DNA from: Gammaproteobacteria bacterium UBA3067
GTDB lineage: Bacteria > Pseudomonadota > Gammaproteobacteria > Pseudomonadales > UBA3067
NCBI GenBank assembly: GCA_002366835.1
Contig: DFBZ01000060.1
Span: forward strand, 83,011-147,010
DNA: 64,000 nucleotides
Direction: 5' to 3'
Positions 853 to 50,978 of the stretch are shown piece by piece. The position numbers and the translations under genes were made by a program. The stretch's first letter is position 1; every line of letters begins with the position of its first letter. The notes under the pieces were generated by a model. That model searched no databases, had not been told where the DNA came from, and saw only the letters and a list, made by a program, of their open reading frames with translations.

Positions 853-861
853 TTGTTTTTA

Positions 862-3052: not shown

Positions 3053-3054
3053 GA

Positions 3055-3352: not shown

Positions 3353-3394
3353 AATCACTGTCAGTTGCTTAATAACAAAATATGGATGAACGCC

Positions 3395-4795: not shown

Positions 4796-4873
4796 AGAGA
4801 ATGAAGACAAAGCGGTGAGCAAACGCGATTCCCGCTTTATTTTACAAAAAATCGAAACGATTCAGCGAGCTCT

Positions 4874-4994: not shown

Positions 4995-5000
4995 AAAAGA

Positions 5001-5510: not shown

Positions 5511-5746
5511 TTAGAAATTATTTCATCCATCTTGTGTTGCCCTGTGCTGAGGCTAGAAATACTTACTCATAAACGAGTATAACAGCCCCCCTTTTGGGCA
5601 CCTCAATACCCTCAGCTATCGCAAGGAAAGCAGCGCTCTACTAAACCCATGACAGCATTCCATGCTATCGCCTTTTTCCGAAACACCCGTTAGAATGATC
5701 AACGCTGCAACAGTTACCCACCTCTAAAAAATGTAAGGAGAACACC

Positions 5747-6328
5747 ATGAGCTTTGAACTTCCCCCACTACCCTACGAAATTGATGCGCTTGAGCCACAC
5801 ATCAGCAAAGAAACCTTGGAGTTTCATTACGGCAAACACCATCAAACCTACGTAACCAACCTGAACAATCTGGTGGCCGGAACTGACAACGAAGGTAAAC
5901 CTCTGGAAGACATCATTAAAAACTCCAGCGGTGGGGTTTTTAACAATGCTGCTCAAATCTGGAACCACACTTTTTATTGGAATTGCCTCAGCCCCAATGG
6001 CGGCGGTGAGCCAACAGGAGCATTGGCTCAGGCTATTAACGATACTTTTGGTTCTTTTGCAGAATTCAAAGAACAGTTCAGCAAAACCGCCATCACTACT
6101 TTCGGTTCTGGCTGGGGCTGGTTGGTTAAAAACAGCGACGGCAGCCTGGCATTAACCAGCACCAGCAACGCCGGCACACCGCTTACTGAAGGCCAAACGC
6201 CTCTACTGACTTGCGATGTATGGGAACATGCCTACTACATCGATTTTAGAAACGCGCGCCCCAAGTACGTTGAGACTTTCTGGAATCTTGTAAACTGGGA
6301 ATTTGCTTCTCAAAATTTTGCGGGCTAA
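5747..6328 (+). CDS. sodB: Iron superoxide dismutase
   Basis: [36 protein letters not shown] and [27 protein letters not shown] upstream. Confidence 0.95.
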
Positions 6329-6338
6329 TCGCAAAAAC

Positions 6339-6364
6339 AGTCAAAGGGCCTTGGCCCTTTGACT
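6339..6364 (+). terminator. Strong hairpin after sodB
   Basis: AGTCAAAGGGCC-TT-GGCCCTTTGACT forms a perfect 12-bp stem 11 nt after the stop. The U-tract is weak. Confidence 0.5.
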
Positions 6365-6372
6365 CATTCCCC

Positions 6373-7467: not shown

Positions 7468-7669
7468 CAATTTTGCACTGTAGCATCATCATAAAAACAT
7501 TCACCATGCTTTAACCCAGCCCACTGTTGCACTAAGACACCCTTGTACCCCAATACACTCCCTGCCCCGTTCGGTGCAATATTGCAGCTAAAGCCTGTAG
7601 CATTACAGAAAGCATGCTTTCCACTTAGACTTTACACGCTCAACTTTAAGGAGCTACTCGCCATGGCCT

Positions 7670-10114: not shown

Positions 10115-11083
10115 TCACTTTAGAGAAAACCGATTGACCCCTCGCGTACCCACGATTAACAGTTCATTTTTTTCAGTTACAACGCTAGCAACCAGATCAT
10201 GAAAGCCAGGGAATTCCAATTTTTTATAATTCTTATTCTGCGCGGTCTTTTGCAATACCACGCCTCCTTGGCCCAGTAAAACAGAACCTCCATCTGCTAA
10301 CTGCACATGCCCCATTAGTCCATTGATGACCGATACAGGTTCTTTTTCCCAGTTCGTACCAAAATCCGATGAGCGATACACCTGCCCTCTAAGCCCGAAA
10401 GTGATCAGTTCGCTATCTGTCGTTTGGGACAAACCGAACATTGATCCACCATAAGGTAAGTGAAGTGTTTCCCAAGTTTCCCCGTGATTATTAGAACGAA
10501 GGAAAGTACCACTTTCTCCTACTAGAAATAACCACTCATCCATTACGAGCGCGGCATTGATATGGCGATCAAATTCATCCGGTAAGGTGCGCTCTTGCCA
10601 ACTAAGACCATGATCTTTTGTTTCCAACATTAGGCCATAAGCACCCACGGCAAAACCACAACAAGCATCATAGAAAACGATGTCTAACAGCGGGCTTTCT
10701 TTTTCTGGTGCAGCATAAACAATTTCCCAGCTTTCCCCCGCATCGCTACTTTTTAGTATCACCGCATCATGCCCCACCAACCACGCTGTATTTGCATCGC
10801 TAAAATAAATTGCGGTAAGGGTCGCTTGTGAAGGAACTGGCATTTGCTGCCAGTTTTCACCATCCTCAGAGCGGATCACGATACCCCACTCTCCTGCAGC
10901 AAAATAATTATCACCACTTTTGGTGATATCCAGCAACAATGCTTTATCCGCTAAAGGGGCAGTAATAGCAGGGCGTTGTGACGGAAATTCACTCACATTT
11001 TCGCCATAAGACCCCAAAGGGCTTACTGCAAAAAAACCAGCAAGCAAATAAGAAAGTGAGTTTTTAAATTTAAGGAAATCCAC
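10115..11083 (-). CDS. BNR/Ycf48-like beta-propeller protein (secreted)
   Basis: Signal peptide. Five SxDxGxxW (BNR/Asp-box) motifs: SEDGENWQ, SSDAGESWE, TKDHGLSWQ, SNNHGETWE and SSDFGTNWE. Confidence 0.75.
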   Translation of the reverse strand: MDFLKFKNSLSYLLAGFFAVSPLGSYGENVSEFPSQRPAITAPLADKALLLDITKSGDNYFAAGEWGIVIRSEDGENWQQMPVPSQATLTAIYFSDANTAWLVGHDAVILKSSDAGESWEIVYAAPEKESPLLDIVFYDACCGFAVGAYGLMLETKDHGLSWQERTLPDEFDRHINAALVMDEWLFLVGESGTFLRSNNHGETWETLHLPYGGSMFGLSQTTDSELITFGLRGQVYRSSDFGTNWEKEPVSVINGLMGHVQLADGGSVLLGQGGVVLQKTAQNKNYKKLEFPGFHDLVASVVTEKNELLIVGTRGVNRFSLK

Positions 11084-11122
11084 TGCACATCTCCAAACTT
11101 GGGTGTCGGAAAAAGAGGGCTA

Positions 11123-11205
11123 CTATAAGCCACTGCGACAGAGAATCACAACGGCTTATAGGAAGAATAGATATTCACGAAACCACACTATTTGGCTTCG
11201 TGAAT
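11123..11205 (-). terminator. Two intra-operon stem-loops between the DUF1329 and BNR genes (attenuator or mRNA-stability element)
   Basis: Plus-strand sequence. Hairpin 1 at 11123-11161 is CTATAAGCC...GGCTTATAG (9 bp). Hairpin 2 at 11173-11205 is ATTCACGAAACC...GGCTTCGTGAAT (11/12 bp). On the transcribed strand the second hairpin is followed by AUCUAUUCUUCC. Confidence 0.4.
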
Positions 11206-11220
11206 GGGGTAATGGAATGG

Positions 11221-12594
11221 CTAGCGAATGCCTTTTGATCGCAAACGGTTAGGCGTCCAATAAGAGGCAGGTTTTTTAAAGGTGAAATTTCGTGGCTTAT
11301 AGGCGTTATCCAAGCCTTCCACTGAGTAGCGTCCTGACTGCAAGTCGTAGGTTGCTTGTACTGTAGTAGTCATAATGGGCAAGGTGTACAGGTTGAAAAT
11401 CTGACCATCCTGATAACGCCATAGTTCACCCTGATTATCATAGATATCTACCTGTGCAATAGTCCAGCTATCTTCATCAATATAGAAAACACGCTTGGCA
11501 TAAATATGGCGCTCTTCAGGTTTAACGGTTGCTTCTACTACCCACACTCGATGTAGCTCATAACGGCACAAGTCTTGATTAATATGCCCTGGCTGAATCA
11601 TCGCATCGGTGGCAATCTCGGATTCATCCACTTGGAAGTTATAACCGTTATAGCCAATATACATTTCCCGCTTGCCCAGCAACTTCCAGTTGTAACGATC
11701 CAGCGAGCCACCAAAACCATCGGTTTGATCTCGCGTCATTAAACCATCAGCAGAGGGTGCATCATATGAGTATTCAGGCGCACGCCGAACCCGCCTTTGC
11801 CCTGGGTTATAAATCCACGCTTTCGCAGGCTCTTTTGCTTGGTTAATCGTGGCGAGAATGAGGTTCATACTGCCCGCTATCCTTGCTGGCGCTTCAGTAC
11901 GCTGAATTGCCTGCACACTAATATTACCAAACTCTTTTGGATCAGAATTAAGCTGGCCATATCCATAAGTCAATTCACGATACTGCACATTCAGCACGTA
12001 CTTACCATCAGGTTCAACAATGGCTTGGTTTGCATAGTAAATAGCACCGTCGCCACGATAGCGAATAGTATGATTCCAAATTGCCTCCGCGCCATTTTGA
12101 GGAATGGGAAAAGGAAACCCAGTGCCCACAACATTTTGTAAGCCGTAATTCCCATCGTCGCTTAACTCAACCTGTGTTGCACTTTGCAGTGTTCGGTCAT
12201 ACACATTTTGAGGGTAAGATGCAGATCTCCTTGTCGTATAAATGGGCATTTTGAATGTTTCGGGGAACTTTTTAAACATCGCTTTCGCACCTTCGGAAAG
12301 CTGCTCTTCATATTTTGAATAGTTACTGGCATCGATGGTAAAAAGAACCTTATCGTCAGCAAATTTATTCTTATGCCGCTCCCCCGGTGGCACTGTTTCC
12401 TGAGGAATTCCTCCTTGCCACGAAGGAATAGTTCCTGCCGCGTTACCCGCTTTTTCTGCACCGACTGGCGTTAACTCTTGCCCCAGCTTAGCCGATTCTT
12501 CCTGGCTGACTTTGCCGTATGCGGGCATTGTTGCAGTGAATGAAATTAAGGAGGAACCTAGTATTGTACTTGTAATTATTGTTTTAATTTTCAT
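11221..12594 (-). CDS. DUF1329-family (LolA-like) periplasmic or outer-membrane protein
   Basis: Signal peptide. The C-terminal region YELHRVWVVEATVKPEERHIYAKRVFYIDEDSWTIAQVDIYDNQGELWR is characteristic of DUF1329 as I remember it. Sits next to a DUF1302 gene. Confidence 0.75.
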   Translation of the reverse strand: MKIKTIITSTILGSSLISFTATMPAYGKVSQEESAKLGQELTPVGAEKAGNAAGTIPSWQGGIPQETVPPGERHKNKFADDKVLFTIDASNYSKYEEQLSEGAKAMFKKFPETFKMPIYTTRRSASYPQNVYDRTLQSATQVELSDDGNYGLQNVVGTGFPFPIPQNGAEAIWNHTIRYRGDGAIYYANQAIVEPDGKYVLNVQYRELTYGYGQLNSDPKEFGNISVQAIQRTEAPARIAGSMNLILATINQAKEPAKAWIYNPGQRRVRRAPEYSYDAPSADGLMTRDQTDGFGGSLDRYNWKLLGKREMYIGYNGYNFQVDESEIATDAMIQPGHINQDLCRYELHRVWVVEATVKPEERHIYAKRVFYIDEDSWTIAQVDIYDNQGELWRYQDGQIFNLYTLPIMTTTVQATYDLQSGRYSVEGLDNAYKPRNFTFKKPASYWTPNRLRSKGIR

Positions 12595-12608
12595 AGAAAT
12601 ATATCCTC

Positions 12609-14135
12609 TTAGAATGCGTATTTGGCATCAACGGTAATAATATCGCGGTCTTCATAAACACTGTCGCCAAAATAGTCGACGTAGCTGATGCTTGTTGACC
12701 AGGTGTCTACAAATTTTGCCTCAAGGCCCACTTTTATTTTTTTACTGTTATCACTAAACGGCCCCAATGTACCCTTTAGATTCCAGTCATAAGACACATT
12801 GGGCGCTAACGTGATGCCTTCATAGACATCATAATAATCCACCGTCACTAAGCCCGTCACACTCCAAGCCTCACCATCAATACCAGGATTTACGGCATCA
12901 CCTTCAAGCCAGGCCACACCCGCTTCTGCTACGACGGTGATACGGTCAGAACCGAGTACATTATTGAAAAATCGGGTTGCTGTTGTCTGCGCCTGGTAAT
13001 ACCCCATACGCTCATGGGATACCGCAGGTTGTCCAGTTAGTAACGCACCAAAAATACTCGATGATGGCATTGCTACAACAAAATTGGGACGATAGGAGAC
13101 CTCCCCTTGTAATGCTGCTTCTCCTACTTGGTAGTTATAACTTATGCCGTATAAACGTGTTTTTTCCGGATATTCCCAGAAATATGAGGCTGTACTTAAT
13201 ACCGGCACAGGACCCGCAGCAAAAGCAGTCACCGGGCTACCATTTAAGACCGGCGTTTGATTATGGTAGCGTACAAAATAAAAACCAAATTCGGCATAAT
13301 CAAGCTTTGGTATCACTGTCGAAAGCCGTATTCCGAATTGACCGTCATCACTTCCGGTATTATCGGCACCCTTCGGCACACCCCCTAACATTTCATAACC
13401 GGGAATAAACAAATCACCACCATCGCCTTCACCTAGGAGGTCGCTTGGGCTAAAGAAAGTACCCACTGGCGGCAGCTCTGTTTCATCCCATTCACTTTGG
13501 TAATAAAACTCTAAGCCGGTATAGGGAAGGATGTCAGGAAAAGAAAACCAGGCAATCGGCGCAGGAAGCAATCCTTCCTTAACCTCAGAGCCAGGCATCA
13601 GCAAACGCCCTACATCAAGGGGATTAATGGAGTTTATTCCTCCTTGAATAAAAGTACTTTCACCCCAGCTAACCACCTGATTACCAAGCCGCGCCTCAAG
13701 GGTTTTCTCTCCAATCATAAATGTTGAGAACAAGAAAGCATCCAGCAAGCGTAAATCATGGCCAAGGCGACCTTTTGCTTGTTCGGGAATTTCCGCATCA
13801 CTTTTATCTTCAATAGCTGAGTCATAAAGATAGGTGAAGCGAACAAAGGCACCACGTGTATCGTTGGCAATTTTAATATCGTTACTGCCTTTTATAGGCG
13901 AAGAAACGATGTCATTTTTTTCAAAGTTAGCGTCTCCTTTCGAGCCTGCAGCCAACACAGGATCTGGGTCTGTAGTGCGTACGCTAATACCGGCTGAAAG
14001 GCTGGTATCTATGTTTGCTTTGTAGCTGCCAATATCCATCTCAAATGAATATGCAGAGCCTGATGCAATACTCATCGTTGCCATGAACACCGCCGTCTTA
14101 AGCCTGGAAGTTGTTTTTATCGTTGTTTTATTCAT
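12609..14135 (-). CDS. DUF1302-family outer-membrane beta-barrel protein
   Basis: Signal peptide ending SAYS/FE. Alternating beta-strand pattern. Terminal ...VDAKYAF with a C-terminal aromatic residue, the OMP sorting signature. Confidence 0.75.
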   Translation of the reverse strand: MNKTTIKTTSRLKTAVFMATMSIASGSAYSFEMDIGSYKANIDTSLSAGISVRTTDPDPVLAAGSKGDANFEKNDIVSSPIKGSNDIKIANDTRGAFVRFTYLYDSAIEDKSDAEIPEQAKGRLGHDLRLLDAFLFSTFMIGEKTLEARLGNQVVSWGESTFIQGGINSINPLDVGRLLMPGSEVKEGLLPAPIAWFSFPDILPYTGLEFYYQSEWDETELPPVGTFFSPSDLLGEGDGGDLFIPGYEMLGGVPKGADNTGSDDGQFGIRLSTVIPKLDYAEFGFYFVRYHNQTPVLNGSPVTAFAAGPVPVLSTASYFWEYPEKTRLYGISYNYQVGEAALQGEVSYRPNFVVAMPSSSIFGALLTGQPAVSHERMGYYQAQTTATRFFNNVLGSDRITVVAEAGVAWLEGDAVNPGIDGEAWSVTGLVTVDYYDVYEGITLAPNVSYDWNLKGTLGPFSDNSKKIKVGLEAKFVDTWSTSISYVDYFGDSVYEDRDIITVDAKYAF

Positions 14136-20714: not shown

Positions 20715-21833
20715 ATGATAGATCAGCAGCGCACCCATTCCACGGCAGCAGATCATACGATACCTGATCATGTTAATTCGATGCTGGCACGCGCTAAGCG
20801 AGATGCCATATTGCAAGCAGCGAGCGGTGCGCTTATCGTGCTGGATGCCAATGGCACTATTATTTCTTTCAACAGCCGTGCCGAAGAACAGTTTGCCATA
20901 CCAAAAAGGAAAGCAATCGGGGCGCAAGTTGATAAAATTCTGAATGTATGCGAATTAACAAGTAGTTCGTTCTACGAGTGGATCAAATTACTGGATCTGG
21001 AAACCGAAGTTGCACATAACGTGGTACTGAATTTTAATAAAGCCGATGGTTCCACAGAGATGGCGGAGGTCACTGTCGGGAAAGCTCCCCTGGAGAGTTT
21101 CACTGTAGAAAAAAGTACCGAAAATTCATCCGCAGCAAAAGGCCCATGCTATCAATATATTTGCGTCATCCGACCCGTCTCCACCTTTAAAGACAGTCAA
21201 ATTGAAGATGCCTTAAAATATCTAAGTCATACCCTCAAAACACCTTTATTCGGAATGCTTGGTCTCATCTCGCTTGCTCTCAGCGAAAAGCGCCTACCTG
21301 CTCGTTCGAGGCGTTACCTTGAGCGGGCAAACAAATCGGGCGAGGCGCTTGCCCAAGTTATTGAGCGCACGCTGAATAAACTTCAAGCCCACCCCCCCAA
21401 CCAGGATGCAGCCCAGAACAAGGCAGAACAGGCTGAAGACGAGCTTGCTTACAAAGGAAGGTTTAGCGGGAACAATATTCTGGTAGTCGAAGACAACCTA
21501 ACCAACCAAATTATTGCCAAAGGCATGTTAAAGAAATTTGGGGTAAACCCCCACACCGTAGAAAACGGCGAGGAAGCCATTGCCGAGATAAAAAGAAACA
21601 ACTACGACCTGATTCTGATGGACTGCAACATGCCTGTTATGGATGGTTATACTGCAGCAAAAATGATTCGCGAATTGCCTGCACCAAAAAGCAACATCCC
21701 TATTATCGCTATCACTGCGACACAGGTCTCTGACAAAGAAACATTTTGCAAAACAAATAAAATGGACGGTTATATTGCGAAACCTTACCGCCTTGACGAC
21801 ATCTATCACACGCTCCATCTTTGGCTAAGCTAA
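20715..21833 (+). CDS. PAS - HisKA(DHp) - receiver protein lacking a HATPase catalytic domain
   Basis: PAS-like LIVLDANGTIISFNSRAEEQF. H-box LSHTLKTPLFGMLG. Receiver domain ILVVEDNLTNQ...DLILMDCNMPVMDG...IIAITA...YIAKP. Only ~80 aa separate the H-box from the receiver, and no N/G1/G2 boxes are visible. Confidence 0.7.
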   Translation: MIDQQRTHSTAADHTIPDHVNSMLARAKRDAILQAASGALIVLDANGTIISFNSRAEEQFAIPKRKAIGAQVDKILNVCELTSSSFYEWIKLLDLETEVAHNVVLNFNKADGSTEMAEVTVGKAPLESFTVEKSTENSSAAKGPCYQYICVIRPVSTFKDSQIEDALKYLSHTLKTPLFGMLGLISLALSEKRLPARSRRYLERANKSGEALAQVIERTLNKLQAHPPNQDAAQNKAEQAEDELAYKGRFSGNNILVVEDNLTNQIIAKGMLKKFGVNPHTVENGEEAIAEIKRNNYDLILMDCNMPVMDGYTAAKMIRELPAPKSNIPIIAITATQVSDKETFCKTNKMDGYIAKPYRLDDIYHTLHLWLS

Positions 21834-21863: not shown

Positions 21864-23015
21864 TCAGCCAGAGCTTTTACTTTTCAATATCTCTAACTTT
21901 TTAATCACTTTTTTCACCCTATCAACATACTCTCGTGCTTGCTTATGATTCGGTTGTAGCTTGAGCGCAGCCTGCCAGATATCCAGCGCTTTTTGATAGT
22001 GCTCCCGTTTATAGTAGGAATAACCCAGCTCAAGCTGAATATCGACGTGATTGGCAAGTTTCTCCTGAAAACTCGCTTCTTTTTCGTCTAAATCCTGGGG
22101 TTTCCACGTATTCTTTTTCAGCAAAGACAGGGTTTTTTTCGCGTCGCTATAATTATCCTGTGACAAAAAATCATTATATTCCGACAGCAAAGCTTGCCCT
22201 CGCTGCTTTGCCTTCCTTATCTTTTTCTTCTGTGCATATTCCAACGCGGCGTTTTTCTTCTTATTCCGGAGCTTAATGCTTACTAATACTCTTGATTTCA
22301 GCGCACCTGCCTGTTCACTAGGATGAAGTCGATAGGCTAAATTGGCCATTTTTTTAGCTCTATTTAGTTCCTTTTTTTCAAGGTCTATTTCAGCAAACAC
22401 CAATAACTCAGCAGAGACTTTTTGGGCTTCGATTGTTTTATCTTTTAAATTTTCTGTAATGCTTACGTTACGAGGATCAACCTGAGATAGCTCACGATTA
22501 TAGGAAATCTCTTTCTCCAACATTTCGCCTTTCGCAAACAGCACTTTTTGCTCCGCCTTATGGATCTTGATTTTTTGCTTTGTAACGATATTATTATATT
22601 CGGCAGTTAAACGCTGGCTCTTTGGTAGTTTCTTTAGGGCAATATCATAACGGTCCAATACCGCACGCCAGTTATTGCGACGCACGTCTTTCTTGCCTAC
22701 CTCTATAACTTCATTTTCATATTCTTTTGCCAGGCCAGATATGCTTATACGCTTTTTTTGGATGTGCTTATAACGTGGATTTTCTTTATCCACTGAGTCG
22801 ATCGCCACCAACGCCTTACCATACTCCTGCTCTCCCACCCAGCGATCAATGCGGCCCTCTAGATCTGTTCCCACGCCACTGGTGGAAAGGCAGCCAGACA
22901 GAATGACCAACAGAACGCCTAATAAGGCATAGGGAGCCATAAACAAAAGTTGATGTACGATGGTGTCTTTTAATGGCACTAATACGACTAGTTTAGGCTC
23001 TGAAGTTTCATCCAT
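21864..23015 (-). CDS. Lys-rich coiled-coil / TPR lipoprotein
   Basis: Lipobox ILSGC. Long K/E-rich helical region. C-terminal TPR-like YYKREHYQKALDIWQAALKLQPNHKQAREYVDRV. Starts 18 nt downstream of the cyclase stop. Confidence 0.5.
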   Translation of the reverse strand: MDETSEPKLVVLVPLKDTIVHQLLFMAPYALLGVLLVILSGCLSTSGVGTDLEGRIDRWVGEQEYGKALVAIDSVDKENPRYKHIQKKRISISGLAKEYENEVIEVGKKDVRRNNWRAVLDRYDIALKKLPKSQRLTAEYNNIVTKQKIKIHKAEQKVLFAKGEMLEKEISYNRELSQVDPRNVSITENLKDKTIEAQKVSAELLVFAEIDLEKKELNRAKKMANLAYRLHPSEQAGALKSRVLVSIKLRNKKKNAALEYAQKKKIRKAKQRGQALLSEYNDFLSQDNYSDAKKTLSLLKKNTWKPQDLDEKEASFQEKLANHVDIQLELGYSYYKREHYQKALDIWQAALKLQPNHKQAREYVDRVKKVIKKLEILKSKSSG

Positions 23016-23032: not shown

Positions 23033-24706
23033 CTATTCATTATCGGCGAGAAGCTCCTTTATTCTCTCGAGCATTTCGTGCCGAAAGGGATCGCTTATAT
23101 TTTCAAGAGAAAAAATACGACTGGGTTTCGATTTCCCTCTGAGTTGAATTTCACCACGGGCACTTGTCGCTATTTTGTCGCGTACTGAACGGTGAGCAAG
23201 CACCTCACTCGTTAAAATAATTTCTCCTGAGCCTCCGGCATGAGATAAACGCGATGCCAGGTTGACGGCATCGCCCACCACTGTATATTCCATGCGGTTT
23301 TTAGAGCCAATATTGCCCGCCAACATTGTCCCGCTGTTCGCACCAATGCGGAACTCCACTACTGGTAAACCTTTCGCTTTTCGAACCGCGTTGATTTGCT
23401 CAACCACTTGCAGAATCATCCAGGCACAACTTAGTGAATTAAAACGATGATCATCCACCTCATAGGGAACACCAAACACAATCATTGCGCAGTCCCCCAT
23501 GTATTTATCGATATAACCGTGGCAAAAATCAGAAGTTTTTTCAATCAATGAAAAATAATAGTTCAGTAGCTCGCTCACCTCATCGGCTGGCATACTTTCT
23601 GACAAAGAAGTGAAGCCAACGATATCCGCAAACAACACACTGGCATCAATATGTTTTCCACCCAGCTTTACTTCTTCCAAGCTGGTGAGATCACCAATGG
23701 CCTTGCGTGCAACTTGCGGCGATACATAACGGGAAAACACCTCTTCAACCTGCTGTTTCTGTAAAAGACCTTGCCCCATCTGATTCATTGAGCTCATTAA
23801 AATACCAAGCTCATCATTTCTACGCTCCGAAAGATTCACATCGTAACGCCCTTCTGAGATGGCCTTACTCGCATTTAAGATCTGATTAATTGGTTTTGTC
23901 AGCCAATAACTTAAATACACAGACACCAGCATTCCACTCAACGCCATTAAAACGGTCACCAACGTTATGGTAAAAATAGTGTCGCGCCGCGCCTTGGTAA
24001 GATTGGATTTATCAAATACCAGCAAGACATAACCCGCGATCAAATCTTTGGAATAAATGGGATAAAGGTATGCAATGGTCGCTTGTTTCGCGAACGCATC
24101 TTGCTTTTGCGGCAGGATAAAGAACTCAGCACCACCGCTGTGCTTTAAGCCCAGCACGACCTCTTCCACAGAAGTGGAAGCCTGTTTCCCCGAAACAGCC
24201 AGAATCAGACCGTCGTCATCATAAATTGCAGACCCTTCGATTCCTTCATGCTTCGTCACGCCATGGGTAATCATATCCAAGCTTAATTTATCACCCGCCA
24301 GCAAAGGCTCTTTTGCCGAGTCAGACATTTGTTGCAATAAAGTCAGTGCAAATTTATTCAGCTCTGCCTCCAACAAGCGAATCTGATTAGTTCCCACTGT
24401 AATTCCCACCACAAGAATACCCAGCGTCACCAAGCCGGTGATCGCTATAGCCAGCTTTGAGGCAATAGGAATGTATTGTGGTAGTTGCTTTCTTATTACC
24501 TGATAGGCGTCAAGTGGTTCCAACTTAAAAAACGCGGCGGCACTCGTGCAGTATTTTTCGAGCGCCAAAAGCTGCTGCCGCGAAGTGCGCGGCGTGACAG
24601 GGGCACTTTTTTTCAAGTTTGGGTTCCAAACCATGGATTTCTGCTTATGCGCAATACGTAAATTTATATAGGATTCAACCGTGACAACGCCATTTCGGCG
24701 GCACAC
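23033..24706 (-). CDS. Membrane-bound class III adenylate/guanylate cyclase with periplasmic sensor and HAMP domain
   Basis: Two TM segments flank a ~140-aa periplasmic region. HAMP: WLTKPINQILNASKAISEGRYD...NDELGILMSSMNQM. Cyclase: ASVLFADIVGFTSLSE...DKYMGDCAMIVFG...IGANSGTMLAGNIGS..MEYTVVGDAVNLASRL. The ATG at 24634 is a likely alternative start. Confidence 0.8.
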   Translation of the reverse strand: MCRRNGVVTVESYINLRIAHKQKSMVWNPNLKKSAPVTPRTSRQQLLALEKYCTSAAAFFKLEPLDAYQVIRKQLPQYIPIASKLAIAITGLVTLGILVVGITVGTNQIRLLEAELNKFALTLLQQMSDSAKEPLLAGDKLSLDMITHGVTKHEGIEGSAIYDDDGLILAVSGKQASTSVEEVVLGLKHSGGAEFFILPQKQDAFAKQATIAYLYPIYSKDLIAGYVLLVFDKSNLTKARRDTIFTITLVTVLMALSGMLVSVYLSYWLTKPINQILNASKAISEGRYDVNLSERRNDELGILMSSMNQMGQGLLQKQQVEEVFSRYVSPQVARKAIGDLTSLEEVKLGGKHIDASVLFADIVGFTSLSESMPADEVSELLNYYFSLIEKTSDFCHGYIDKYMGDCAMIVFGVPYEVDDHRFNSLSCAWMILQVVEQINAVRKAKGLPVVEFRIGANSGTMLAGNIGSKNRMEYTVVGDAVNLASRLSHAGGSGEIILTSEVLAHRSVRDKIATSARGEIQLRGKSKPSRIFSLENISDPFRHEMLERIKELLADNE

Positions 24707-26764: not shown

Positions 26765-29700
26765 TCAGGGCAGCTTGAAAAAAGGATCCAGATAATAGGC
26801 CCCCAAGCCGGAAGTCACATCTTTCTCCCACCAGATGTTAAACATATAGACCTCTTCTTCCCTATCCTCATCTGAATCAAAGTCTCCGCTGTCTGCCGTA
26901 ATACTCTCCAAAGAGTACATCTTAGGACTTGTTCCACCCAGATCAACACTGATGTAATCTGTCGTTAAGTCAATTGTCCACGCACCTGCTTCCTCAACAG
27001 AGCCGTTTGACAACCACTCATAGGTGTTAGGCGAGCCTTGAGCAAAGAGCATACGTTCCGTTTGACCCCATACGATTGCAAATTCCCCCACAATGTCTGC
27101 CTCTGCTGTGATATCAACACCATTCGCCGATTCTGCTATGAACGCATCGAAGGGAACGAGACGTAAAGTTAAATAAGAGAGATCCATCGCACCGTTTTGA
27201 ATCACCACCACCTCCGGATGATAAGTATCATTAAACTCAGCCAAGGCAATTTGGTGCTTATCACCGCTACTGGCAATAGTAATTTGCAGGTTTCCATCCC
27301 CATCCACCAACCATGTCATCGCTTCATCTATCGAACCATCATCAGCCCCGTTAGAAAGCAACTCTTGCTCACGCACCCATCGACCACCATCACCGCTGCC
27401 ATCAAACACGTAGTTATCAATAACGAAATGGATATCCGTAACAAACTCTCGTCCAATTCCAAAACCCGCCACACCAAAGCTGCTACCACTGGTTATTGTG
27501 CTATTGGCAGCAAAATCAACGCCGTTACCACTGGCTGCAAGAAATTCGGCAGGCAAAGGTGCTGGTGCCGTGTAGCTAAAGGCTGTTTTAAACTGATCCA
27601 GCGCAACAGTATTGAACATCAGATCCTGCTCAACCGATCCCGCTGCAAAGACGGCTCCGCTGCGAACAATATTTCCGTATCCACCGAGCTCAGTAATGGT
27701 ATCCACAAAGAAGAAATGCTTAAGATCGCCATCCTCAATATCAACATTACTTAGGTCAACCACTGCCTGCGGCGTAACGAACTCAACGACCTCTACGCCA
27801 CCTTTGTGTATCACTTCGTAGCTAACGGTAATACCTGTGTCGACATAGGAGTTTTTGTAGAAGCGCACCGTGGGGTTGGCCCCAGCCACCGTACCATCGC
27901 TTGAAACAAGGTAAGCATTAACGTCATATTCATTACTACCATCATTGCCACGACCGACCCATATACCCACTCCATTACCGTTAGCTGGGTCGAAACTGGC
28001 AGAGCTGCTTATAATGTCACTCAATGTGGTTGCCGGCACAGGCTCCCAGTTACCACTGCCAACAGGCTTTTCTAACTGGTCTACGGGCACAATACCTTCG
28101 CAGGAAAGTCCCGTTTCATCAAACCAGTCATCCCAACGACTCCAGTTATTGTCACACCAAAAAATATAGGCCTCAGCAGTATTACTTTCGCTTGCTAGGT
28201 AAGCTCGCGCACCTGTGGCAAAGGAGGGGTTTCCAGGAAGGCCATCTGCAAAATTACCGTCGAGAATATCCAGCATGATCCTGTCTTCAATGTTGTATTC
28301 CTCAAGGTCTACATGCCTTATTAGGTGATCAACAATTACTCCAGATTTTGTTAATTTCAGAACAGCCGTTTCAGGTGCTGCGGCATAACCATCAATTTGT
28401 AATATGTCGTCGGCAATATCTACATCTCCACTGCTGCTCAGATAACCTTCTTCGCCCACCGCATTCGCTGTTGAGTCGACCCATACCGTATCGATCTCAT
28501 CCCAGGAGAACTGGGTTTCCAGAGCATCGGAAATAACTCCGTATTTAAAACCCCAGTCTCTATCAGCTTCCAGCCAAACAATGCCACTGGCACCAATGGG
28601 CTGCTCTCTGACGTCTACTGGCAGGGTCGCACTGACGTTAAATATTGCCGTACACGCTGAGCCGCCAGTATTCGTATTGCCGGTCCAAGTTCCGGTAAAT
28701 TTGCCAGCGCCCTCGCTGAATGTTCCGGTAAAGCTGTCTGAAACATTAGCCGTAGCATCCACGCCCGAAAAGGTAAAAGTGCCATCAGGCTGTATGGTTC
28801 CTGTGTATAGCCAGTCATCATTCATGTTACTAACGGTCAGAGCAGTACCAACCTGTTCAAACTGCCAGAACTCGGAACCGCTTTCACCAACAACACTCAG
28901 GCAACTACTACTGTCGACATCCCACTCGGTGCCCGAATCAGCACTGTAGTCTTGCAGGTAAATACCGCTCATGTCAGGGATTGCTGCTTCACAGGCATCG
29001 CCTATGCCATCGCCGTCATCAACACCGTTGGTATCTAGCTGATCTGAGTTAGAAACTAAAGGACAGTTATCAGTAGCATCACCGACGGTATCGCTGTCGG
29101 TATCTTCATTAAACGGGTCGGTGCCTAGACCTAGCTCATCAACATCCAACACGCTATCGTTGTCGTCATCGGCATCACAGGCATCGCCTTCGGTATCACC
29201 GTCGTTGTTAACCTGGTTAGTATTGGCAATCTCTGGGCAGTTATCCAGATCATCAATCACTGTGTCTAAGTCAGTGTCCAATTCACATGCATCGCCTATG
29301 CTATTTGAGTTCAAATCAGCTTGATCTGCATTAGCTGTAAATTGACAGTTATCAGGGGCAGCATCCAGCACGCCATCATTGTCATCATCGGTATCACAGG
29401 CATCACCTTCGGCGTCGCCGTCGTTGTTAGCCTGATCGGTGTTTGCATCAACCGAGCAGTTATCACCATTGTCGCCCACGGTATCGCTGTCGGTATCAAC
29501 TGTTTCAGCTGGATCTGCTGGGAAGGCATCAGCATTATCACCCACGCCATCGCTGTCAGTATCCGTAGTTTCAGCCGGGTCTGCTGGGAAGGCATCGGCG
29601 TTATCACCTACACCATCACTGTCGGTATCAGTTGTTTCAGTCGGATTTACCGGGAAAGCATCGGCGTTATCACCTACACCATCGCTGTCGGTATCTGCAG

Positions 29701-31696
29701 TTTCAGCTGGATCTGCTGGGAAGGCATCAGCATTATCACCCACGCCATCGCTGTCGGTATCCGCAGTTTCAGTCGGATCTACCGGGAAGGCATCGGCATT
29801 ATCACCCATACCATCGCTGTCGGTGTCCGCAGTTTCAGCTGGATCGGCTGGGAAAGCATCAGCATTATCACCCACGCCATCGCTGTCGGTATCCGCAGTT
29901 TCAGTTGGATCTGCTGGGAAGGCATCAGCATTATCACCCACGCCATCGCTGTCAGTATCCGTAGTTTCAGCCGGGTCTGTTGGGAAGGCATCTGAATTGT
30001 TGCCCACGGTGTCGCTATCTGTATCTAGGGCCTCTAAAGGGTCGGTGGGGAATTGATCTACACCATCAGAAAAACCATCCGAGTCTGTATCCCACAGTAA
30101 AGGATCAGTTCCATCCAAACCTTCCTGGGTATCAGAAACACCGTCTCCATCTTTGTCGGTGTCACTGTTATCGCCTATATTATCACCATCCAAATCGCTG
30201 TCTTCGGCACTATCCAAGGGAAACAAATCATCTACATCGAGCACACTGTCCTCATCATCATCGCCATCACAGACATCACCACCGTCGCCTAAACCATCGG
30301 TGTTCAGCTGGTCAGGGTTAGCGTTCAATGGACAGTTATCTGTACCGTCATTGATAACGCCATCGCCGTCGGCATCGTTTGAGCAGGCATCGCCTTCGCC
30401 ATTCGCATCCGTATCTATTTGATCCGTATTGGCAGCCAATGGACAGTTATCAACTCCGTTATTTATAGTATCGGAATCACGATCCAGGGCTGGATCTAAA
30501 AAGGCACTGTTATCAAGGGGGTAGTCATCATCATTATCCGCCCAACCGTCATTATCGTCATCAGTGTCGGCATTGTTACCAATAAAGTCTCCATCCGTAT
30601 CAAGCTGTTCGGCTGGATCTTCTGGAAACGCGTCATCAGCATTTAGCACTGAGTCGCCGTCAAGATCAGAGTTTGTTTCTGCTGGCTCTGACTCCACATT
30701 AATCGTGTCAAGCGCGGTAGTGTCTGTTGTTTCTCCAGTAACGGTAGTTTCGTCTCGCAACTCTTGCTCAATATCAGCAACCAGAATAGTCGTGTTAGGA
30801 ATGGTCAAAGTTGCTGGATCCTGGCTTAACACGTCTAGTGCAGGTGCTTCGTAGACCGTACTCGCAACTCCACCGACGGTTCCATCAATTTCACCATCGG
30901 CCAAATCATTGGCCAGCTCAGTTAAAATTTCACCTGTATCACCAGTAACAGATAACTTTTGCATCTCATAAGCTATAGCCGTTAATGCTTCTATAGCAGT
31001 TCGGTATGCGGCCACGGAAGCCTGCTCTTCTGTTGTGTCAGTCGTACTGTCAATCAAAGGAGGCGTATCAAAAATATCAACCGTTTCATCCAAACCAAAA
31101 CCCATGGTGGATTTGACCTGAGAAGCAGCGGTAAGCAAGGCGGCTTCAAAAGAAGCGCCATCAAGCGAAGCTGGGTCTGCAATGGCAATATCCACCGCCA
31201 TGGTTGTCAGCGGTGTTGCATAAATCTGTTCACCGGAATCCAGCAATGCCTGGGTTACCACCGTTCGCATAGTAGTGATAACAGGCGCCAGACCTGTAGT
31301 AATGTCGGTTGTATCAGTATCGGAGGTAACTTCTAGAATATAAGGAGGGGCCAAAGGAAAAGCTAAAGATAGATTCTGTATCTGCGCCTGTGCATTGGTA
31401 GAGCCGCTTCCTGCAACACTGCCTTTCATTCCAGGCCCTGATGGTTCAATGTTGTAGACAGTCACCACGGCGTTGGCCAGCGGCCCTTTAATGCCACCCC
31501 CTGTTAGTGCGAGTGTCGCGGTATCGGCGTTGGTATTACCGCCAGTATTATTCGTACCGTTTTCTTCTGCAGCAGGATCATTGCGGTGCGAATCGCTACA
31601 CCCTGCGAAAAAAGAAAGCAGCACTAGATAAGTAATTACGTGAACCAGACTGCGGGTTGGTACACATTGAGCTAGGCGCATTATAAATCCCCTCAC
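26765..31696 (-). CDS. Giant (1643 aa) surface lipoprotein with thrombospondin type-3 (TSP3) Ca-binding repeats and an uncharacterised ~780-aa C-terminal region
   Basis: Lipobox LSFFAGC followed by S. Dozens of DxDxDGxxDxxD motifs, both the cysteine-containing form (DNCPLxxNxDQxDxDxDGxGDAC) and a Cys-free form (DTDSDGVGDNADAFPADP). Confidence 0.8.
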   Translation of the reverse strand: MRGFIMRLAQCVPTRSLVHVITYLVLLSFFAGCSDSHRNDPAAEENGTNNTGGNTNADTATLALTGGGIKGPLANAVVTVYNIEPSGPGMKGSVAGSGSTNAQAQIQNLSLAFPLAPPYILEVTSDTDTTDITTGLAPVITTMRTVVTQALLDSGEQIYATPLTTMAVDIAIADPASLDGASFEAALLTAASQVKSTMGFGLDETVDIFDTPPLIDSTTDTTEEQASVAAYRTAIEALTAIAYEMQKLSVTGDTGEILTELANDLADGEIDGTVGGVASTVYEAPALDVLSQDPATLTIPNTTILVADIEQELRDETTVTGETTDTTALDTINVESEPAETNSDLDGDSVLNADDAFPEDPAEQLDTDGDFIGNNADTDDDNDGWADNDDDYPLDNSAFLDPALDRDSDTINNGVDNCPLAANTDQIDTDANGEGDACSNDADGDGVINDGTDNCPLNANPDQLNTDGLGDGGDVCDGDDDEDSVLDVDDLFPLDSAEDSDLDGDNIGDNSDTDKDGDGVSDTQEGLDGTDPLLWDTDSDGFSDGVDQFPTDPLEALDTDSDTVGNNSDAFPTDPAETTDTDSDGVGDNADAFPADPTETADTDSDGVGDNADAFPADPAETADTDSDGMGDNADAFPVDPTETADTDSDGVGDNADAFPADPAETADTDSDGVGDNADAFPVNPTETTDTDSDGVGDNADAFPADPAETTDTDSDGVGDNADAFPADPAETVDTDSDTVGDNGDNCSVDANTDQANNDGDAEGDACDTDDDNDGVLDAAPDNCQFTANADQADLNSNSIGDACELDTDLDTVIDDLDNCPEIANTNQVNNDGDTEGDACDADDDNDSVLDVDELGLGTDPFNEDTDSDTVGDATDNCPLVSNSDQLDTNGVDDGDGIGDACEAAIPDMSGIYLQDYSADSGTEWDVDSSSCLSVVGESGSEFWQFEQVGTALTVSNMNDDWLYTGTIQPDGTFTFSGVDATANVSDSFTGTFSEGAGKFTGTWTGNTNTGGSACTAIFNVSATLPVDVREQPIGASGIVWLEADRDWGFKYGVISDALETQFSWDEIDTVWVDSTANAVGEEGYLSSSGDVDIADDILQIDGYAAAPETAVLKLTKSGVIVDHLIRHVDLEEYNIEDRIMLDILDGNFADGLPGNPSFATGARAYLASESNTAEAYIFWCDNNWSRWDDWFDETGLSCEGIVPVDQLEKPVGSGNWEPVPATTLSDIISSSASFDPANGNGVGIWVGRGNDGSNEYDVNAYLVSSDGTVAGANPTVRFYKNSYVDTGITVSYEVIHKGGVEVVEFVTPQAVVDLSNVDIEDGDLKHFFFVDTITELGGYGNIVRSGAVFAAGSVEQDLMFNTVALDQFKTAFSYTAPAPLPAEFLAASGNGVDFAANSTITSGSSFGVAGFGIGREFVTDIHFVIDNYVFDGSGDGGRWVREQELLSNGADDGSIDEAMTWLVDGDGNLQITIASSGDKHQIALAEFNDTYHPEVVVIQNGAMDLSYLTLRLVPFDAFIAESANGVDITAEADIVGEFAIVWGQTERMLFAQGSPNTYEWLSNGSVEEAGAWTIDLTTDYISVDLGGTSPKMYSLESITADSGDFDSDEDREEEVYMFNIWWEKDVTSGLGAYYLDPFFKLP
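29475..30046 (-). repeat. In-frame 66-bp tandem repeat, about 8.5 units (22-aa unit DTDSDGVGDNADAFPADPAETA)
   Basis: Units begin at 29475, 29541, 29607, 29673, 29739, 29805, 29871 and 29937, an exact 66-bp phase. Most are roughly 85-95% identical at the nucleotide level by eye. Confidence 0.9.
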
Positions 31697-43947: not shown

Positions 43948-47975
<4,028 letters not shown>

Positions 47976-48116
47976 AAAGAGCTTAACGTTATAGAAAATA
48001 ACAATTGCCAAATTAATTACCGCCTAGATCAGCAGGTTAGTAAAAGCACGCAAGCCTTCATATAAGCTCTAACATAGCTAGGCTTGCGCCTCCCCTGTGT
48101 GCAACAAGGATGTTCA

Positions 48117-50978
48117 ATGCAAGCACATGTTCAGCCCCCCACACCACAACACTTAAGCTATTCCCCCCGCTCACTCCAGCTCCGTCTTTTTATTTTTTTA
48201 GCGTTACTGCCTTGTCTGCTGCACCCAACAAATAGCCATGCAATTGATCCACGACTAGACTGGTTTAGCTTAGCAACGCCGCATTTTATTATTCACTTCC
48301 CTGAAGAAAACGAGGCGCTTGCTGAGCTTATTGCCGAAAGAGCCGAGAGCGCCCACAAAGAACTCTCCCCCTGGTTTAATTGGCAGCCAAAAGAAAAAAC
48401 CCACATCGTCCTTAATACGAGTGAAAGCCGAGCAAACGGTTCCGCTTTCGCCATCCCTTATAATCGCATCGAACTAAACATGGTCATTCCCGAAGCAGGA
48501 GGCAACCTGTCAGACTTTGCTGATTGGTGGACACTGCTAATCACCCATGAGTACGCACACATCCTCCACCTAGATAAAAAAGTGGGAGTTCCTCTTTTCC
48601 TGCGCCAAACCCTTGGCCGTGTTCCAGCATTTTATCCCAACCTGTTTCAACCTCGCTGGATTATTGAAGGCCTCGCCACCTATATTGAAACCGATAATGA
48701 AAATCAAACCGGCCGCGGCCAAAGCAGCGCCTTCAATATGATGATCAACGAAGAACTCGGCCAGGGTTTAAAATCACTGCGCCAAATCAACATTCATGAA
48801 AGCAACTGGCCCTACAGCAGCGCCTACCTGTATGGCAGCTATTTTTTTGAATTTCTTGAACAGGAATATGGTGAAGAAAAAACCAAAGCCTTTATTGCTG
48901 AATACAGCAACAACATCATCCCCTTCGCACTGAATACCACCAGCAGCACTGTTTTTGACAAATCTCTTTACAGCTTGTGGAAAGACTATGAACACTATTT
49001 AAAAACCAATATCGCCATCCCCGCCTTAGCTGGAGACAAACAACAGGCGCTTACCGAAAAAGGATACCTACAAGGCCCATTACAAAGCGACAATGACAGG
49101 GCGCTATTATTTATTCAAAACAATGGTGAACGTCACACAGCACTATGGAAAATAAACCAACAGGGAGACAAAGAGAAAATAACAGAACTGCAATCAGGTG
49201 CATCCTTCGACTTCCACAAGCGCGGTGGTTTCATCATCAGCCAAGCGGAAGTCTGCGAAGAATATAACGTATATTATGACCTCTTTATTCTCACCAAGAA
49301 CGACACTACTCCACAACAAATTACGCACTGCGCACAATACCACTACGCCAGCTGGCACCCATCGGGAAATAAAATTGCAGCCATAAAGGTAAACCCTTTA
49401 TACAGCCAAATCGACCTACTTAAAAAAGATGGCTCCTTCATAAAGACCCTCTGGAAAAGCAATAAAAACGAGCGCCTCAGTGCTTTAGACTGGAATCAAG
49501 ATGGCAGCAAAATAATCACCTCTTTACATAAAACTAATACTGGATGGAACCTTTATGAGCTAGATACTAACAAAGGCTCTATGCGCAGCCTGACAAATGA
49601 CTGGGCGGAAAAGTCTGCGCCACGGTACCAGAAAAATGGGCACATCATCTATTCCGCCGATTACGATGGCGTGAGTAATATCTATAAAATAAATTCGACA
49701 AGCGGAAAGGTTTTAAAACTTAGCCAGGGAAATAAAGGCAAATTCCACCCCCTATTGACTGAAAAAAACGAAACGTCACACCTAAGCTATATGCAATATG
49801 GCCCCACAGGCCTCAACATATACCAACAAAAAGAAATCATCGCTAATGCCTACACCGTTAAACCTGATTTACGGATAACAGAAAATAAAAAGGCAACAGA
49901 AAAAGTTACGCCATATTCACCAGCAAACACAGCACAGGGCTACTCCCCATGGCCATCTTTAATCGCACCCAGCTGGATACCGAATTTTTTTGTTTCCAGT
50001 GATCAAAGTTTTATTGGAGCGATACTTATGGGTGCCGATGCACTGCAAAACCATAAGTACGAAATCTCCCTCGCCTACGAGGCGCAATATGAACAGCTCT
50101 ACAGCAATATAAACTATCAATACAATGACCGCCTATTTATCAACTATGAACATGATAAGCGTTATTTTTTCTCACAGGAAAGGCTCGACTTCATTCTCAA
50201 CACAGACCAGATCGAAGCTTACTACCTCGTCCCAAGTTCAACACTGGAAGCACAATGGAATATTCTGCTCGGTGGCGAGTTTATTTATAATTCATGGGAT
50301 CAATTCTCACCTTTTTTTATTAAGCCGGATTCATCACGAAGCCAGCTACTTGGCGTTGCTGTTTTATACAACAGTAGCCACCGCTATTTACGAGGTATTA
50401 GCGATACTGAAGGGCGACAAGTTTATGTGGCGGCGGAAAATATCCGTCTATTTGACAATAATATCCGTGGCGATAGCCTGACATTTGACTGGCGCGAATA
50501 TATCCCCCTTAGCGACGCTCACACTCTTGCGTTGCGTGGCGTCCATGCCCGAAGCTCCTCACCCAGTGTTCGCTATTTTCTTGGCGATGATTTCAGCGAT
50601 CCTTTCAATAATATCGGCAACATATTCAATCGCCAAGATTACCCCTTAAGGGGATACGATCAGTCTCTCGAAAAACTCAGCGGGAATCGCTTATTCCTAG
50701 GCAGTGCCGAGTGGCGCTTCCCCATTACCAATATCGAACGCACACTTATGTCTCCTCCGGTGGGAATACAAAAAGTACATGGCAAGCTGTTTATAGAATC
50801 TGGCGCAGCCTGGACAGCGGGTATCAATGAGAGGGAGTTCTACAGCAGCAGGGGCGTCGAACTAATCGCTGAAGCAAGATTATTTTATTACTACCCCGTT
50901 AATCTGCGCTTGGGTTACGCAAAAACAGAAGAAAAAGACGGGGATAACTTTTATGGCAGTCTTGGGGTATCCTTCTAA
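48117..50978 (+). CDS. Predicted outer-membrane protein: HExxH metalloprotease-like region, TolB-like beta-propeller and Omp85-type barrel
   Basis: Signal peptide ...PTNSHA/ID. THEYAHILH with a downstream IIEGLATYIE. WD40-like/TolB repeats (SWHPSGNKIAAIK, DWNQDGSKIITS, YSADYDGVSNIYKIN). DYPLRGYD, an Omp85 L6-like (V/L)RG(F/Y) motif. C-terminal ...GSLGVSF. The ORF opens at TTG 48084. Confidence 0.6.
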   Translation: MQAHVQPPTPQHLSYSPRSLQLRLFIFLALLPCLLHPTNSHAIDPRLDWFSLATPHFIIHFPEENEALAELIAERAESAHKELSPWFNWQPKEKTHIVLNTSESRANGSAFAIPYNRIELNMVIPEAGGNLSDFADWWTLLITHEYAHILHLDKKVGVPLFLRQTLGRVPAFYPNLFQPRWIIEGLATYIETDNENQTGRGQSSAFNMMINEELGQGLKSLRQINIHESNWPYSSAYLYGSYFFEFLEQEYGEEKTKAFIAEYSNNIIPFALNTTSSTVFDKSLYSLWKDYEHYLKTNIAIPALAGDKQQALTEKGYLQGPLQSDNDRALLFIQNNGERHTALWKINQQGDKEKITELQSGASFDFHKRGGFIISQAEVCEEYNVYYDLFILTKNDTTPQQITHCAQYHYASWHPSGNKIAAIKVNPLYSQIDLLKKDGSFIKTLWKSNKNERLSALDWNQDGSKIITSLHKTNTGWNLYELDTNKGSMRSLTNDWAEKSAPRYQKNGHIIYSADYDGVSNIYKINSTSGKVLKLSQGNKGKFHPLLTEKNETSHLSYMQYGPTGLNIYQQKEIIANAYTVKPDLRITENKKATEKVTPYSPANTAQGYSPWPSLIAPSWIPNFFVSSDQSFIGAILMGADALQNHKYEISLAYEAQYEQLYSNINYQYNDRLFINYEHDKRYFFSQERLDFILNTDQIEAYYLVPSSTLEAQWNILLGGEFIYNSWDQFSPFFIKPDSSRSQLLGVAVLYNSSHRYLRGISDTEGRQVYVAAENIRLFDNNIRGDSLTFDWREYIPLSDAHTLALRGVHARSSSPSVRYFLGDDFSDPFNNIGNIFNRQDYPLRGYDQSLEKLSGNRLFLGSAEWRFPITNIERTLMSPPVGIQKVHGKLFIESGAAWTAGINEREFYSSRGVELIAEARLFYYYPVNLRLGYAKTEEKDGDNFYGSLGVSF

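Follow-up and report, generated by a model that had tools for sequence, protein, structure and literature searches.

In Myxococcus xanthus, the outer-membrane lipoprotein CglD has been proposed to act as a calcium-dependent surface adhesin, and half of it consists of thrombospondin type 3 (TSP3) repeats like those of COMP (10.1101/2023.10.19.562135). TSP3 repeats have also been reported in enzymes of Saccharophagus degradans, and lipobox anchors and TSP3 modules are both found among the surface-protein designs of that species (PMC2386152). Calcium binding by bacterial TSP3 repeats is reported to depend on an intra-repeat disulfide (Dai et al. 2017, as cited in PMC12045341 and 10.1101/2023.11.21.568195). 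Here we describe a gene of comparable make-up in Gammaproteobacteria bacterium UBA3067, in a 64,000-nucleotide stretch of contig DFBZ01000060.1 (positions 83,011 to 147,010; hereafter the window, whose own numbering is used below). The open reading frame (ORF) at 26765..31696, which lies with all its parts on the minus strand, is by its sequence a real gene encoding a very acidic, predicted lipid-anchored protein. From its N-terminus the product consists of a signal peptide with a lipobox, a short tether, an N-domain, a long TSP3 array and two C-terminal modules, A and B. It is a modular, predicted calcium-binding, lipid-anchored envelope or surface protein of a familiar kind, and no new biological principle is indicated; what is new is that three of its domain families (the 477-aa module A, the 259-aa terminal module B and the N-domain of about 285 aa) are absent from Pfam, NCBIfam and the PDB. 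We give roughly an even chance to the reading that it is anchored in the outer membrane and acts as a stalked, Ca2+-dependent binding protein, either an adhesin or a receptor for matrix or particles.

Counted from a GTG codon, the ORF encodes 1643 aa and ends in a stop codon at 26765-26767. The true start is probably the ATG at nt 31681, which is residue 6 in this numbering, lies five codons after the GTG and has a GAGG Shine-Dalgarno sequence upstream. The resulting product of 1638 aa has a public copy of the same length (P0068), which begins at this ATG and is identical to residues 6-1643. The N-terminus reads MRLAQCVPTRSLVHVITYLVLLSFFAG, followed by CS, and residues 1-33 (31598..31696; ...VLLSFFAG, then C33), as read from the sequence, comprise a charged n-region, a hydrophobic core and the lipobox FFAG/C33, with Ser at position +2. 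These are the features of a signal peptidase II substrate, in which a lipobox of the form [LVI/F][ASTG][GA]C lies inside the first ~35 residues; the lipobox here agrees with a PROSITE-type pattern. An earlier sequence-only reading had called the 1643-aa product a lipoprotein on the basis of this lipobox, and the homologues bear it out: conservation of the lipobox Cys reaches at least 90% in an alignment of 50 of them, and homologue lipoboxes are of the ...ACGGGGG type. Residues 34-57 (SDSHRNDPAAEENGTNNTGGNTNA; 31526..31597), which follow the lipobox Cys, are predicted to form a flexible tether. The predicted local distance difference test (pLDDT) score is 59-65 across the first 20 residues of the N-domain model, and homologues have poly-Gly/Ser at this position. 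The mature protein is strongly acidic, with 347 Asp and Glu residues versus 38 Lys and Arg.

The TSP3 array occupies 564 aa (residues 341-904; 28985..30676), as delimited by the Pfam TSP_3 match, phmmer and a motif list. Asp makes up 28% of it, and it has 180 Asp and Glu residues versus 2 Lys and Arg. Pfam family TSP_3 (PF02412) was matched in 13 stretches with 134.9 bits (cutoff 25, E 6.8e-40), which places the array in that family, and a regular expression found 16 motifs of the DxDxDGxxDxxD type. Two forms of repeat are present. Six units bear cysteines (DNCPxxxNxDQ...GDAC), spaced ~20 residues apart in the pairs 418/438, 455/476, 747/767, 784/804, 820/840 and 878/902, while nine or more are Cys-free units of 22 aa with the form DTDSDGVGDNADAFPxDPxET. 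The Cys-free units are encoded by a 66-bp tandem DNA repeat at 29462..29992, for which Tandem Repeats Finder reported a period of 66, 8.0 copies, 85% matches and no indels. The description of ~550 aa of TSP3 motifs in Cys-bearing and Cys-free forms, made from the sequence alone, therefore stands.

Against the PDB, phmmer matched this region to thrombospondin-2 (2rhp and 1yo8, E 5e-30), COMP (3fby, 1.5e-29) and thrombospondin-1, as well as to a bacterial OmpA-family chain (5wtl, 8e-5). On these alignments the array is truly homologous to the calcium-binding 'wire' of thrombospondin and COMP, and from its homology to 1yo8, 3fby and 5wtl we infer that it binds Ca2+. The label 'eukaryote-like' that had been attached to the repeats was not upheld. 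TSP3 is an ordinary bacterial module, with a Pfam family (TSP3_bac), an NCBIfam model for bacterial MtsC and a solved bacterial chain (5wtl), and it recurs in S. degradans, TraB and CglD; because the repeats are common in bacteria, the label is misleading or uninformative.

By analogy, the protein would work most like CglD without belonging to the CglD group. Both are lipoproteins in which a long COMP/thrombospondin-like DxDxDG calcium-binding region is followed by a globular binding region. The head of CglD, however, is a beta-integrin-like VWA domain, whereas Pfam found no VWA domain in the protein studied here; the N-domain and modules A and B do not appear in the description of CglD, on which this comparison is based, and the two come from different phyla. 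With the eukaryotic thrombospondins and COMP (1yo8, 2rhp, 3fby, 1ux6) the protein shares homologous TSP3 repeats, including the Cys-pair form (E 5e-30 to 1e-14). It differs from them in being predicted to be lipid-anchored and in that most of its repeats are the Cys-free 22-aa bacterial variant. Pfam at E <= 1 found TSP_3 only, with neither EGF repeats nor the thrombospondin C-terminal L-lectin-like domain, and the PDB matches were confined to the type 3 repeats; the protein is no thrombospondin orthologue. The designs described in S. degradans share the lipobox anchor and the TSP3 modules, and the protein falls outside that group.

In bacterial envelope proteins such as 5wtl, TraB and MtsC (NF047638), TSP3 repeats likewise serve as calcium-binding spacers, whereas the domains flanking them are unrelated to those found here and the protein has no MYXO-CTERM, OmpA domain or beta-barrel anchor. 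MtsC was the best NCBIfam match, with 200.4 bits versus a cutoff of 350, and the match covered profile positions 63-240 of 428, that is, the repeats only. Identity with MtsC was rejected, the score being below the cutoff and the match not full-length. These envelope proteins bear on the chief rival to a stalked surface protein, namely an outer-membrane lipoprotein that faces the periplasm, in which the TSP3 array would be a Ca2+-dependent spacer or calcium buffer and some constituent of the envelope (for example peptidoglycan, lipid or a partner protein) would be the ligand of modules A and B. The match to the OmpA-family chain 5wtl is in its favor, as is TraB, in which TSP3 repeats join an outer-membrane barrel to an OmpA-like domain (PMC12045341). 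Pfam found no OmpA, LysM or other peptidoglycan-binding domain in the protein, which argues the other way. We regard the periplasmic arrangement as unlikely, and its remaining evidence is taken up below with that on surface exposure.

The region between the tether and the TSP3 array had been described as ~330 aa rich in Thr and Ala. The composition was confirmed (T 15.7%, A 13.1%); the linker-like character was not. The N-terminal ~300 aa are a folded domain, the most widely conserved part of the protein, and not a low-complexity linker. This N-domain (residues 58-339; 30680..31525) has boundaries taken from a hidden Markov model (HMM) of 282 positions, and an AlphaFold2 model built from a 51-sequence alignment (pLDDT 93.5, predicted TM-score (pTM) 0.89) shows a transthyretin-like beta-sandwich followed by a helical bundle. 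Foldseek against the PDB returned only a weak match for the sandwich part, to 5-hydroxyisourate hydrolase/transthyretin-like folds (prob 0.96, E 0.1), and no match for the helical bundle. The N-domain was not recognized in Pfam, NCBIfam or PDB sequence searches. A search with residues 6-340 yielded 66 homologues with E-values down to 3e-85, from Colwellia, Shewanella, Ketobacter, Zhongshania, Spongiibacter, Leucothrix, symbionts of Ridgeia and Lamellibrachia, and many marine metagenomes. The majority are lipoproteins of 320-580 aa, and fusion to TSP3 repeats is usual among them; none of the matches listed by this search exceeded 583 aa, although several giant members of the family carry the N-domain. 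Complete short homologues consist of a lipobox (often ...ACGGGGG), the N-domain, TSP3 repeats and a short W..FNWxDGSTWQ tail. For those of Shewanella scandinavica, Ketobacter, Zhongshania and Spongiibacter (P0036, P0045, P0046, P0058) the homology is genuine and covers the first half of the protein: they share its lipobox, N-domain (37-43% identity) and TSP3 array, and carry annotations such as 'thrombospondin type 3 repeat-containing protein'. They differ in having ~540-570 aa and in ending with the W..FNWxDGSTWQ tail where modules A and B would otherwise stand.

The C-terminal part of the protein had been described as ~780 aa without an assignable motif, holding a single functional domain. 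No characterized domain was found there by Pfam, NCBIfam, or PDB searches with sequence or Foldseek, which agrees with that description. The tail begins at residue 905, however, and is 739 aa long, and it comprises two separable modules that are common to a set of giant lipoproteins. Module A (residues 905-1384, about 477 aa; 27545..28984) is all-beta and recurs one to five times in giant homologues. It opens with an unassigned all-beta subdomain of ~120 aa (905-1026) and has two conserved disulfide pairs, C932/C1015 and C1181/C1199. Over 58 copies of the module, C932 is conserved in 97%, C1015 in 98%, and C1181 and C1199 in 100%; R1345 (100%), G1347 (98%), N1362 (95%) and several Gly, Trp and Phe residues are also conserved. 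The conserved Cys pairs point to an oxidizing compartment. The copy studied here departs from the family consensus at only two conserved positions, D1138 (consensus G) and G1201 (consensus N, 97%). Module B (residues 1385-1643, 259 aa; 26768..27544) has a disordered linker followed by two beta-rich halves of ~8 strands each, a conserved acidic loop (D1602-x-x-D1605-x-D1607) and a conserved C-terminal end (...GW..D..(S/T)GLG..(F/Y)..D...). Neither module matched Pfam, NCBIfam or PDB sequences, whether searched as a single sequence or as a profile. Ten copies of the opening subdomain of module A yielded noise only when searched against Pfam at E <= 10, and among 32 homologues 3 had weak Lipocalin_4 matches.

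S. degradans anchors carbohydrases by a lipobox and secretes a laminarinase that carries TSP3 modules (PMC2386152), and by that precedent the protein might be a surface-anchored enzyme, for instance one that degrades polysaccharides, with a novel catalytic fold in module A or B and the TSP3 array as a linker. We consider this improbable. The conserved residues of module A point to a structural pattern: positions at least 95% conserved in the 58 copies are Cys, Gly, Ala, Pro, Arg and Asn, E1060 is conserved in 88%, and no nucleophile/acid catalytic set is evident among them. The tandem multiplication of a 477-aa module would, in addition, be unusual for a catalytic domain. No glycoside hydrolase, polysaccharide lyase, carbohydrate esterase or carbohydrate-binding module was matched in Pfam or NCBIfam by the protein or 31 homologues, and with no recognizable catalytic or carbohydrate-binding module the protein does not fall into the class of surface glycoside hydrolases, lyases or carbohydrate-binding proteins. 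A match of the C-terminal region to a known glycoside hydrolase, carbohydrate-binding module or lectin, or to a common annotated family, had been named as the outcome that would overturn the sequence-only reading, and neither was found. The genes near the lipoprotein gene speak in both directions: hydrocarbon- and lipid-type catabolic genes are among them, which would suit an enzyme, whereas no sugar-utilization gene adjoins it. This and later statements on the window come from a Pfam scan of its ORFs of at least 200 aa, except two at the right-hand end (58187-59758, 62205-63695).

An AlphaFold2 model of the tail, built from 32 aligned sequences, was all-beta (pLDDT 82.4, pTM 0.71). In C-terminal numbering it has a nine-strand all-beta subdomain (1-120), a large beta-rich core (121-470), a disordered linker (475-505) and then two more beta-rich halves of ~8 strands each. 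The pLDDT was mostly 82-96 in module A, and 70-90 in module B past the disordered 475-505. When the whole model was compared by Foldseek with the PDB and BFVD, nothing convincing was returned, with query-normalized TM-scores <= 0.12 and root-mean-square deviations (rmsd) of 17-35 A. The top matches included beta-propeller and sialidase/arabinanase-type proteins, which would favor an enzyme, and teneurin; at TM-scores this low none was taken as an assignment. A sequence-repetitive beta-propeller is unsupported, since no internal repeats were found in the tail by self-BLAST, hhalign of its subdomains (all probabilities <= 7%) or hhalign self-comparison of the module A core. The higher-probability local matches, all weak, were to the double-barrel/lipocalin-like BFA1 (5yvf, prob 0.96), kievitone hydratase, MoaF and small viral barrels, and the double-barrel resemblance would suit the binding of a lipid or small ligand by a periplasmic protein. 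Foldseek also returned TbpB (3hol, prob 0.63; 4o3z, prob 0.54). Were these matches real, the protein could be a surface lipoprotein of the Slam type, analogous to the TbpB/HpuA class, with the C-terminal beta-barrel of module B as an export signal and the barrels capturing a nutrient such as a metal complex. A lipidated Cys followed by a flexible tether, in family members Cys-poly-Gly, would agree with this, and the surface lipoproteins of Neisseria resemble that layout. The TM-scores of the TbpB matches, however, were 0.10-0.16 with an rmsd of ~20 A, so TbpB was rejected as the fold of the tail. No DUF560/Slam gene was found among the scanned ORFs of the window or in four homologue contexts, no TonB-dependent receptor adjoins the gene or its homologues, and a Slam-type protein appears very improbable.

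The relatives of the tail were found by searching 1.84 billion cluster representatives exhaustively with HMMER, which matched 59 proteins (clusters), 36 of them below 1e-30, the identical protein included. A word-index search with the same 739 aa had returned nothing, which is a false negative, given that the collection holds the identical protein and relatives of 40-51% identity; word-index negatives for long repetitive proteins are not to be trusted. Module boundaries were mapped with local phmmer and hmmsearch. Full-length relatives are typically 2000-4150 aa long and consist of a lipobox, the N-domain, TSP3 repeats, one to five units of module A plus TSP3, and an optional terminal module B, of which Pfam sees TSP_3 and TSP3_bac only. 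P0067 has five copies of module A and P0070 and P0074 have three, each with module B, which is terminal in P0067, P0069, P0070 and P0072-P0077. The protein studied here and P0069 (1464 aa) are minimal forms with one copy. The local HMMs cover the studied protein fully (N-domain 1-282/282, module A 1-477/477, module B 1-259/259), and it shows all the hallmarks of the family: the lipobox, the N-domain, TSP3 spacers, module A with two Cys pairs and R-x-G / N-x-x-A motifs, and a terminal module B. Its module A is 67% identical to copy 4/5 of P0067 and 29% identical to P0067's last copy, which abuts module B, and its module B is 70% identical to that of P0067. These uneven identities indicate that the family evolves by module gain, loss and recombination, and they suggest that the one-copy form was derived by recombination or deletion from a multi-copy ancestor.

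At the level of genomes, a protein-query scan of contigs found no relatives, whereas a search for the module A motif FWCDxxWxxWF as a degenerate DNA pattern, followed by an HMM check, gave 18 loci, five of them true members: Colwellia piezophila ATCC BAA-637, Colwellia sp. 75C3, Gammaproteobacteria bacterium 42_54_T18, and metagenome-assembled genomes of Ketobacteraceae and Moraxellaceae. On the contig that carries P0067 (L001), the N-domain of that protein sits in a separately called gene of 659 aa in another reading frame (5947-7926 of the contig), so that a frameshift or an error of assembly has probably divided what is really one gene of ~4650 aa. Upstream of the P0067 gene, within 1-7926 of the same contig, there is a type I-F-variant CRISPR-Cas set (Cas2-3, Cas7fv, Cas5fv, Cas6f/Csy4). 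On two other contigs, which are metagenomic and related to each other, two genes lie convergently downstream of the giant homologues P0070 and P0073 (L021, 18144-19207; L022, 4553-5614). The first encodes a signal-peptide-bearing protein of 246-253 aa that ends in ...RLN(V/I)(V/A)F and looks like a small outer-membrane beta-barrel, and the second encodes a PilZ protein of 87-96 aa; the two pairs are 50% and 72% identical between contigs. Neither gene has a counterpart in the window or in L001 and L002.

Beads-on-a-string architecture, calcium dependence, acidity, repetitiveness and variable copy number are traits that the family shares with the giant RTX/LapA-type adhesins, which are type I secretion system (T1SS) substrates. 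The difference is that an N-terminal lipobox takes the place of a retention module here. Pfam found neither HemolysinCabind/RTX repeats nor a T1SS signal, and no T1SS or LapG/LapD gene lies nearby, so the protein does not belong to that group.

If the protein is a stalked, outer-membrane-anchored binding protein, it would be lipidated and then delivered to the outer membrane. To reach the surface it would depend on a general pathway, for example type II secretion, as other gammaproteobacterial surface lipoproteins do. The TSP3 array would fold around Ca2+ in calcium-rich seawater and, together with its disulfides, would become an acidic, semi-rigid spacer. Modules A and B, kept clear of the membrane in this way, would bind an external ligand (a polymer, a particle or a host surface). 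The numbers of module A copies and of 22-aa repeats would set reach and avidity, and recombination would change them; the 85% identity of the 66-bp repeats and the uneven identities of module A to the P0067 copies support such changes in copy number. The reading as a whole draws on the precedents of CglD and of the S. degradans surface proteins, the lipobox, the extreme acidity, the N-domain family, the TSP3 homology, the beads-on-a-string relatives, the disulfide-bearing modules, the confident all-beta model and the absence of any enzyme-family match.

Several points weigh against it. Localization, Ca2+ binding and ligand binding are all inferred. Gammaproteobacterial outer-membrane lipoproteins face the periplasm by default, and what Ser at +2 after a lipobox predicts is transport by Lol as far as the outer membrane, not exposure on the surface. 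Among the scanned ORFs of the window there was no secretion system, glycosyltransferase, Slam (DUF560), T1SS, type II secretion system or adhesin-export gene, as had already been noted for adjacent genes from the sequence alone; the lack of an exporter nearby equally favors a protein that stays in the periplasm. No neighbor is conserved across five homologue contexts. Bacterial TSP3 repeats, moreover, also occur in periplasmic linkers, in OmpA-family proteins and TraB (PMC12045341). Size counts against a periplasmic location: relatives of 4000+ aa, with up to five copies of module A and long TSP3 spacers, would be hard to fit in the periplasm, and their architecture is typical of extracellular fibrillar proteins. 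The earlier proposal of a Ca-dependent surface or matrix protein is a reasonable one.

A bolder form of the surface reading would make modules A and B two new folds or families that serve as the ligand-binding heads of undescribed giant lipid-anchored fibrils of deep-sea and symbiotic Gammaproteobacteria, 'beads on a calcium wire' with a new surface route for lipoproteins of 2000-4000 aa and a role in attachment to particles or hosts. We hold this to be possible, though rather doubtful. Should the family be surface adhesins, a lipoprotein-anchored, TSP3-spaced design would be added to the RTX, autotransporter and pilus adhesins, and one would have to ask by what means lipoproteins of this size get across the outer membrane. 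If the protein is instead periplasmic or an ordinary binding protein, the finding consists of three new domain families to curate. In either case this is a rare lipoprotein family, with members of >4000 aa, in marine Gammaproteobacteria that include piezophilic Colwellia and lineages related to tubeworm symbionts. The protein described here, at 1638 aa and with one copy of each part, is the shortest complete version. It is therefore the easiest of the family to express, to solve structurally and to screen for ligands, and it is worth curating as a handy minimal model of the giant marine lipoproteins.

The lipoprotein gene stands alone in the window, convergent with isocitrate lyase and divergent from hisZ-purA, and its region is unremarkable in GC content. 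It is the only copy of the family in the 64 kb. The PurA protein encoded next to hisZ shares 89-97% identity with proteins of gammaproteobacterial metagenome-assembled genomes and ~76% with those of the nearest named genera (Spongiibacter, Zhongshania and Motiliproteus), which places the host among the uncultured marine Gammaproteobacteria. Further neighbors include a HAMP adenylate cyclase, a TPR protein, a YgiQ-type radical SAM protein and tadA, and a conserved gene neighborhood was rejected, the five contexts having nothing in common. Downstream of isocitrate lyase is a signaling cluster, for which no link to the lipoprotein gene was found; it comprises a HisKA and receiver protein (20715-21833, plus strand), a TPR protein (21864-23015, minus strand) and a HAMP class III adenylate/guanylate cyclase (23033-24706, minus strand). 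A 964-aa ORF at 48084-50978 (plus strand), which has no Pfam match at E <= 1e-5, follows a 972-aa DUF349 protein (43948-46866) and a zinc alcohol dehydrogenase. Four genes on the minus strand at 7670-14135 encode a DUF1302 protein (12609-14135), a DUF1329/LolA-like protein (11221-12594), a BNR/YCF48-like beta-propeller (10115-11083) and an MMPL/RND transporter (7670-10114). They are adjoined by an aldehyde dehydrogenase and a saccharopine-dehydrogenase-like gene, and the cluster looks like an envelope transport system for hydrophobic substrates.

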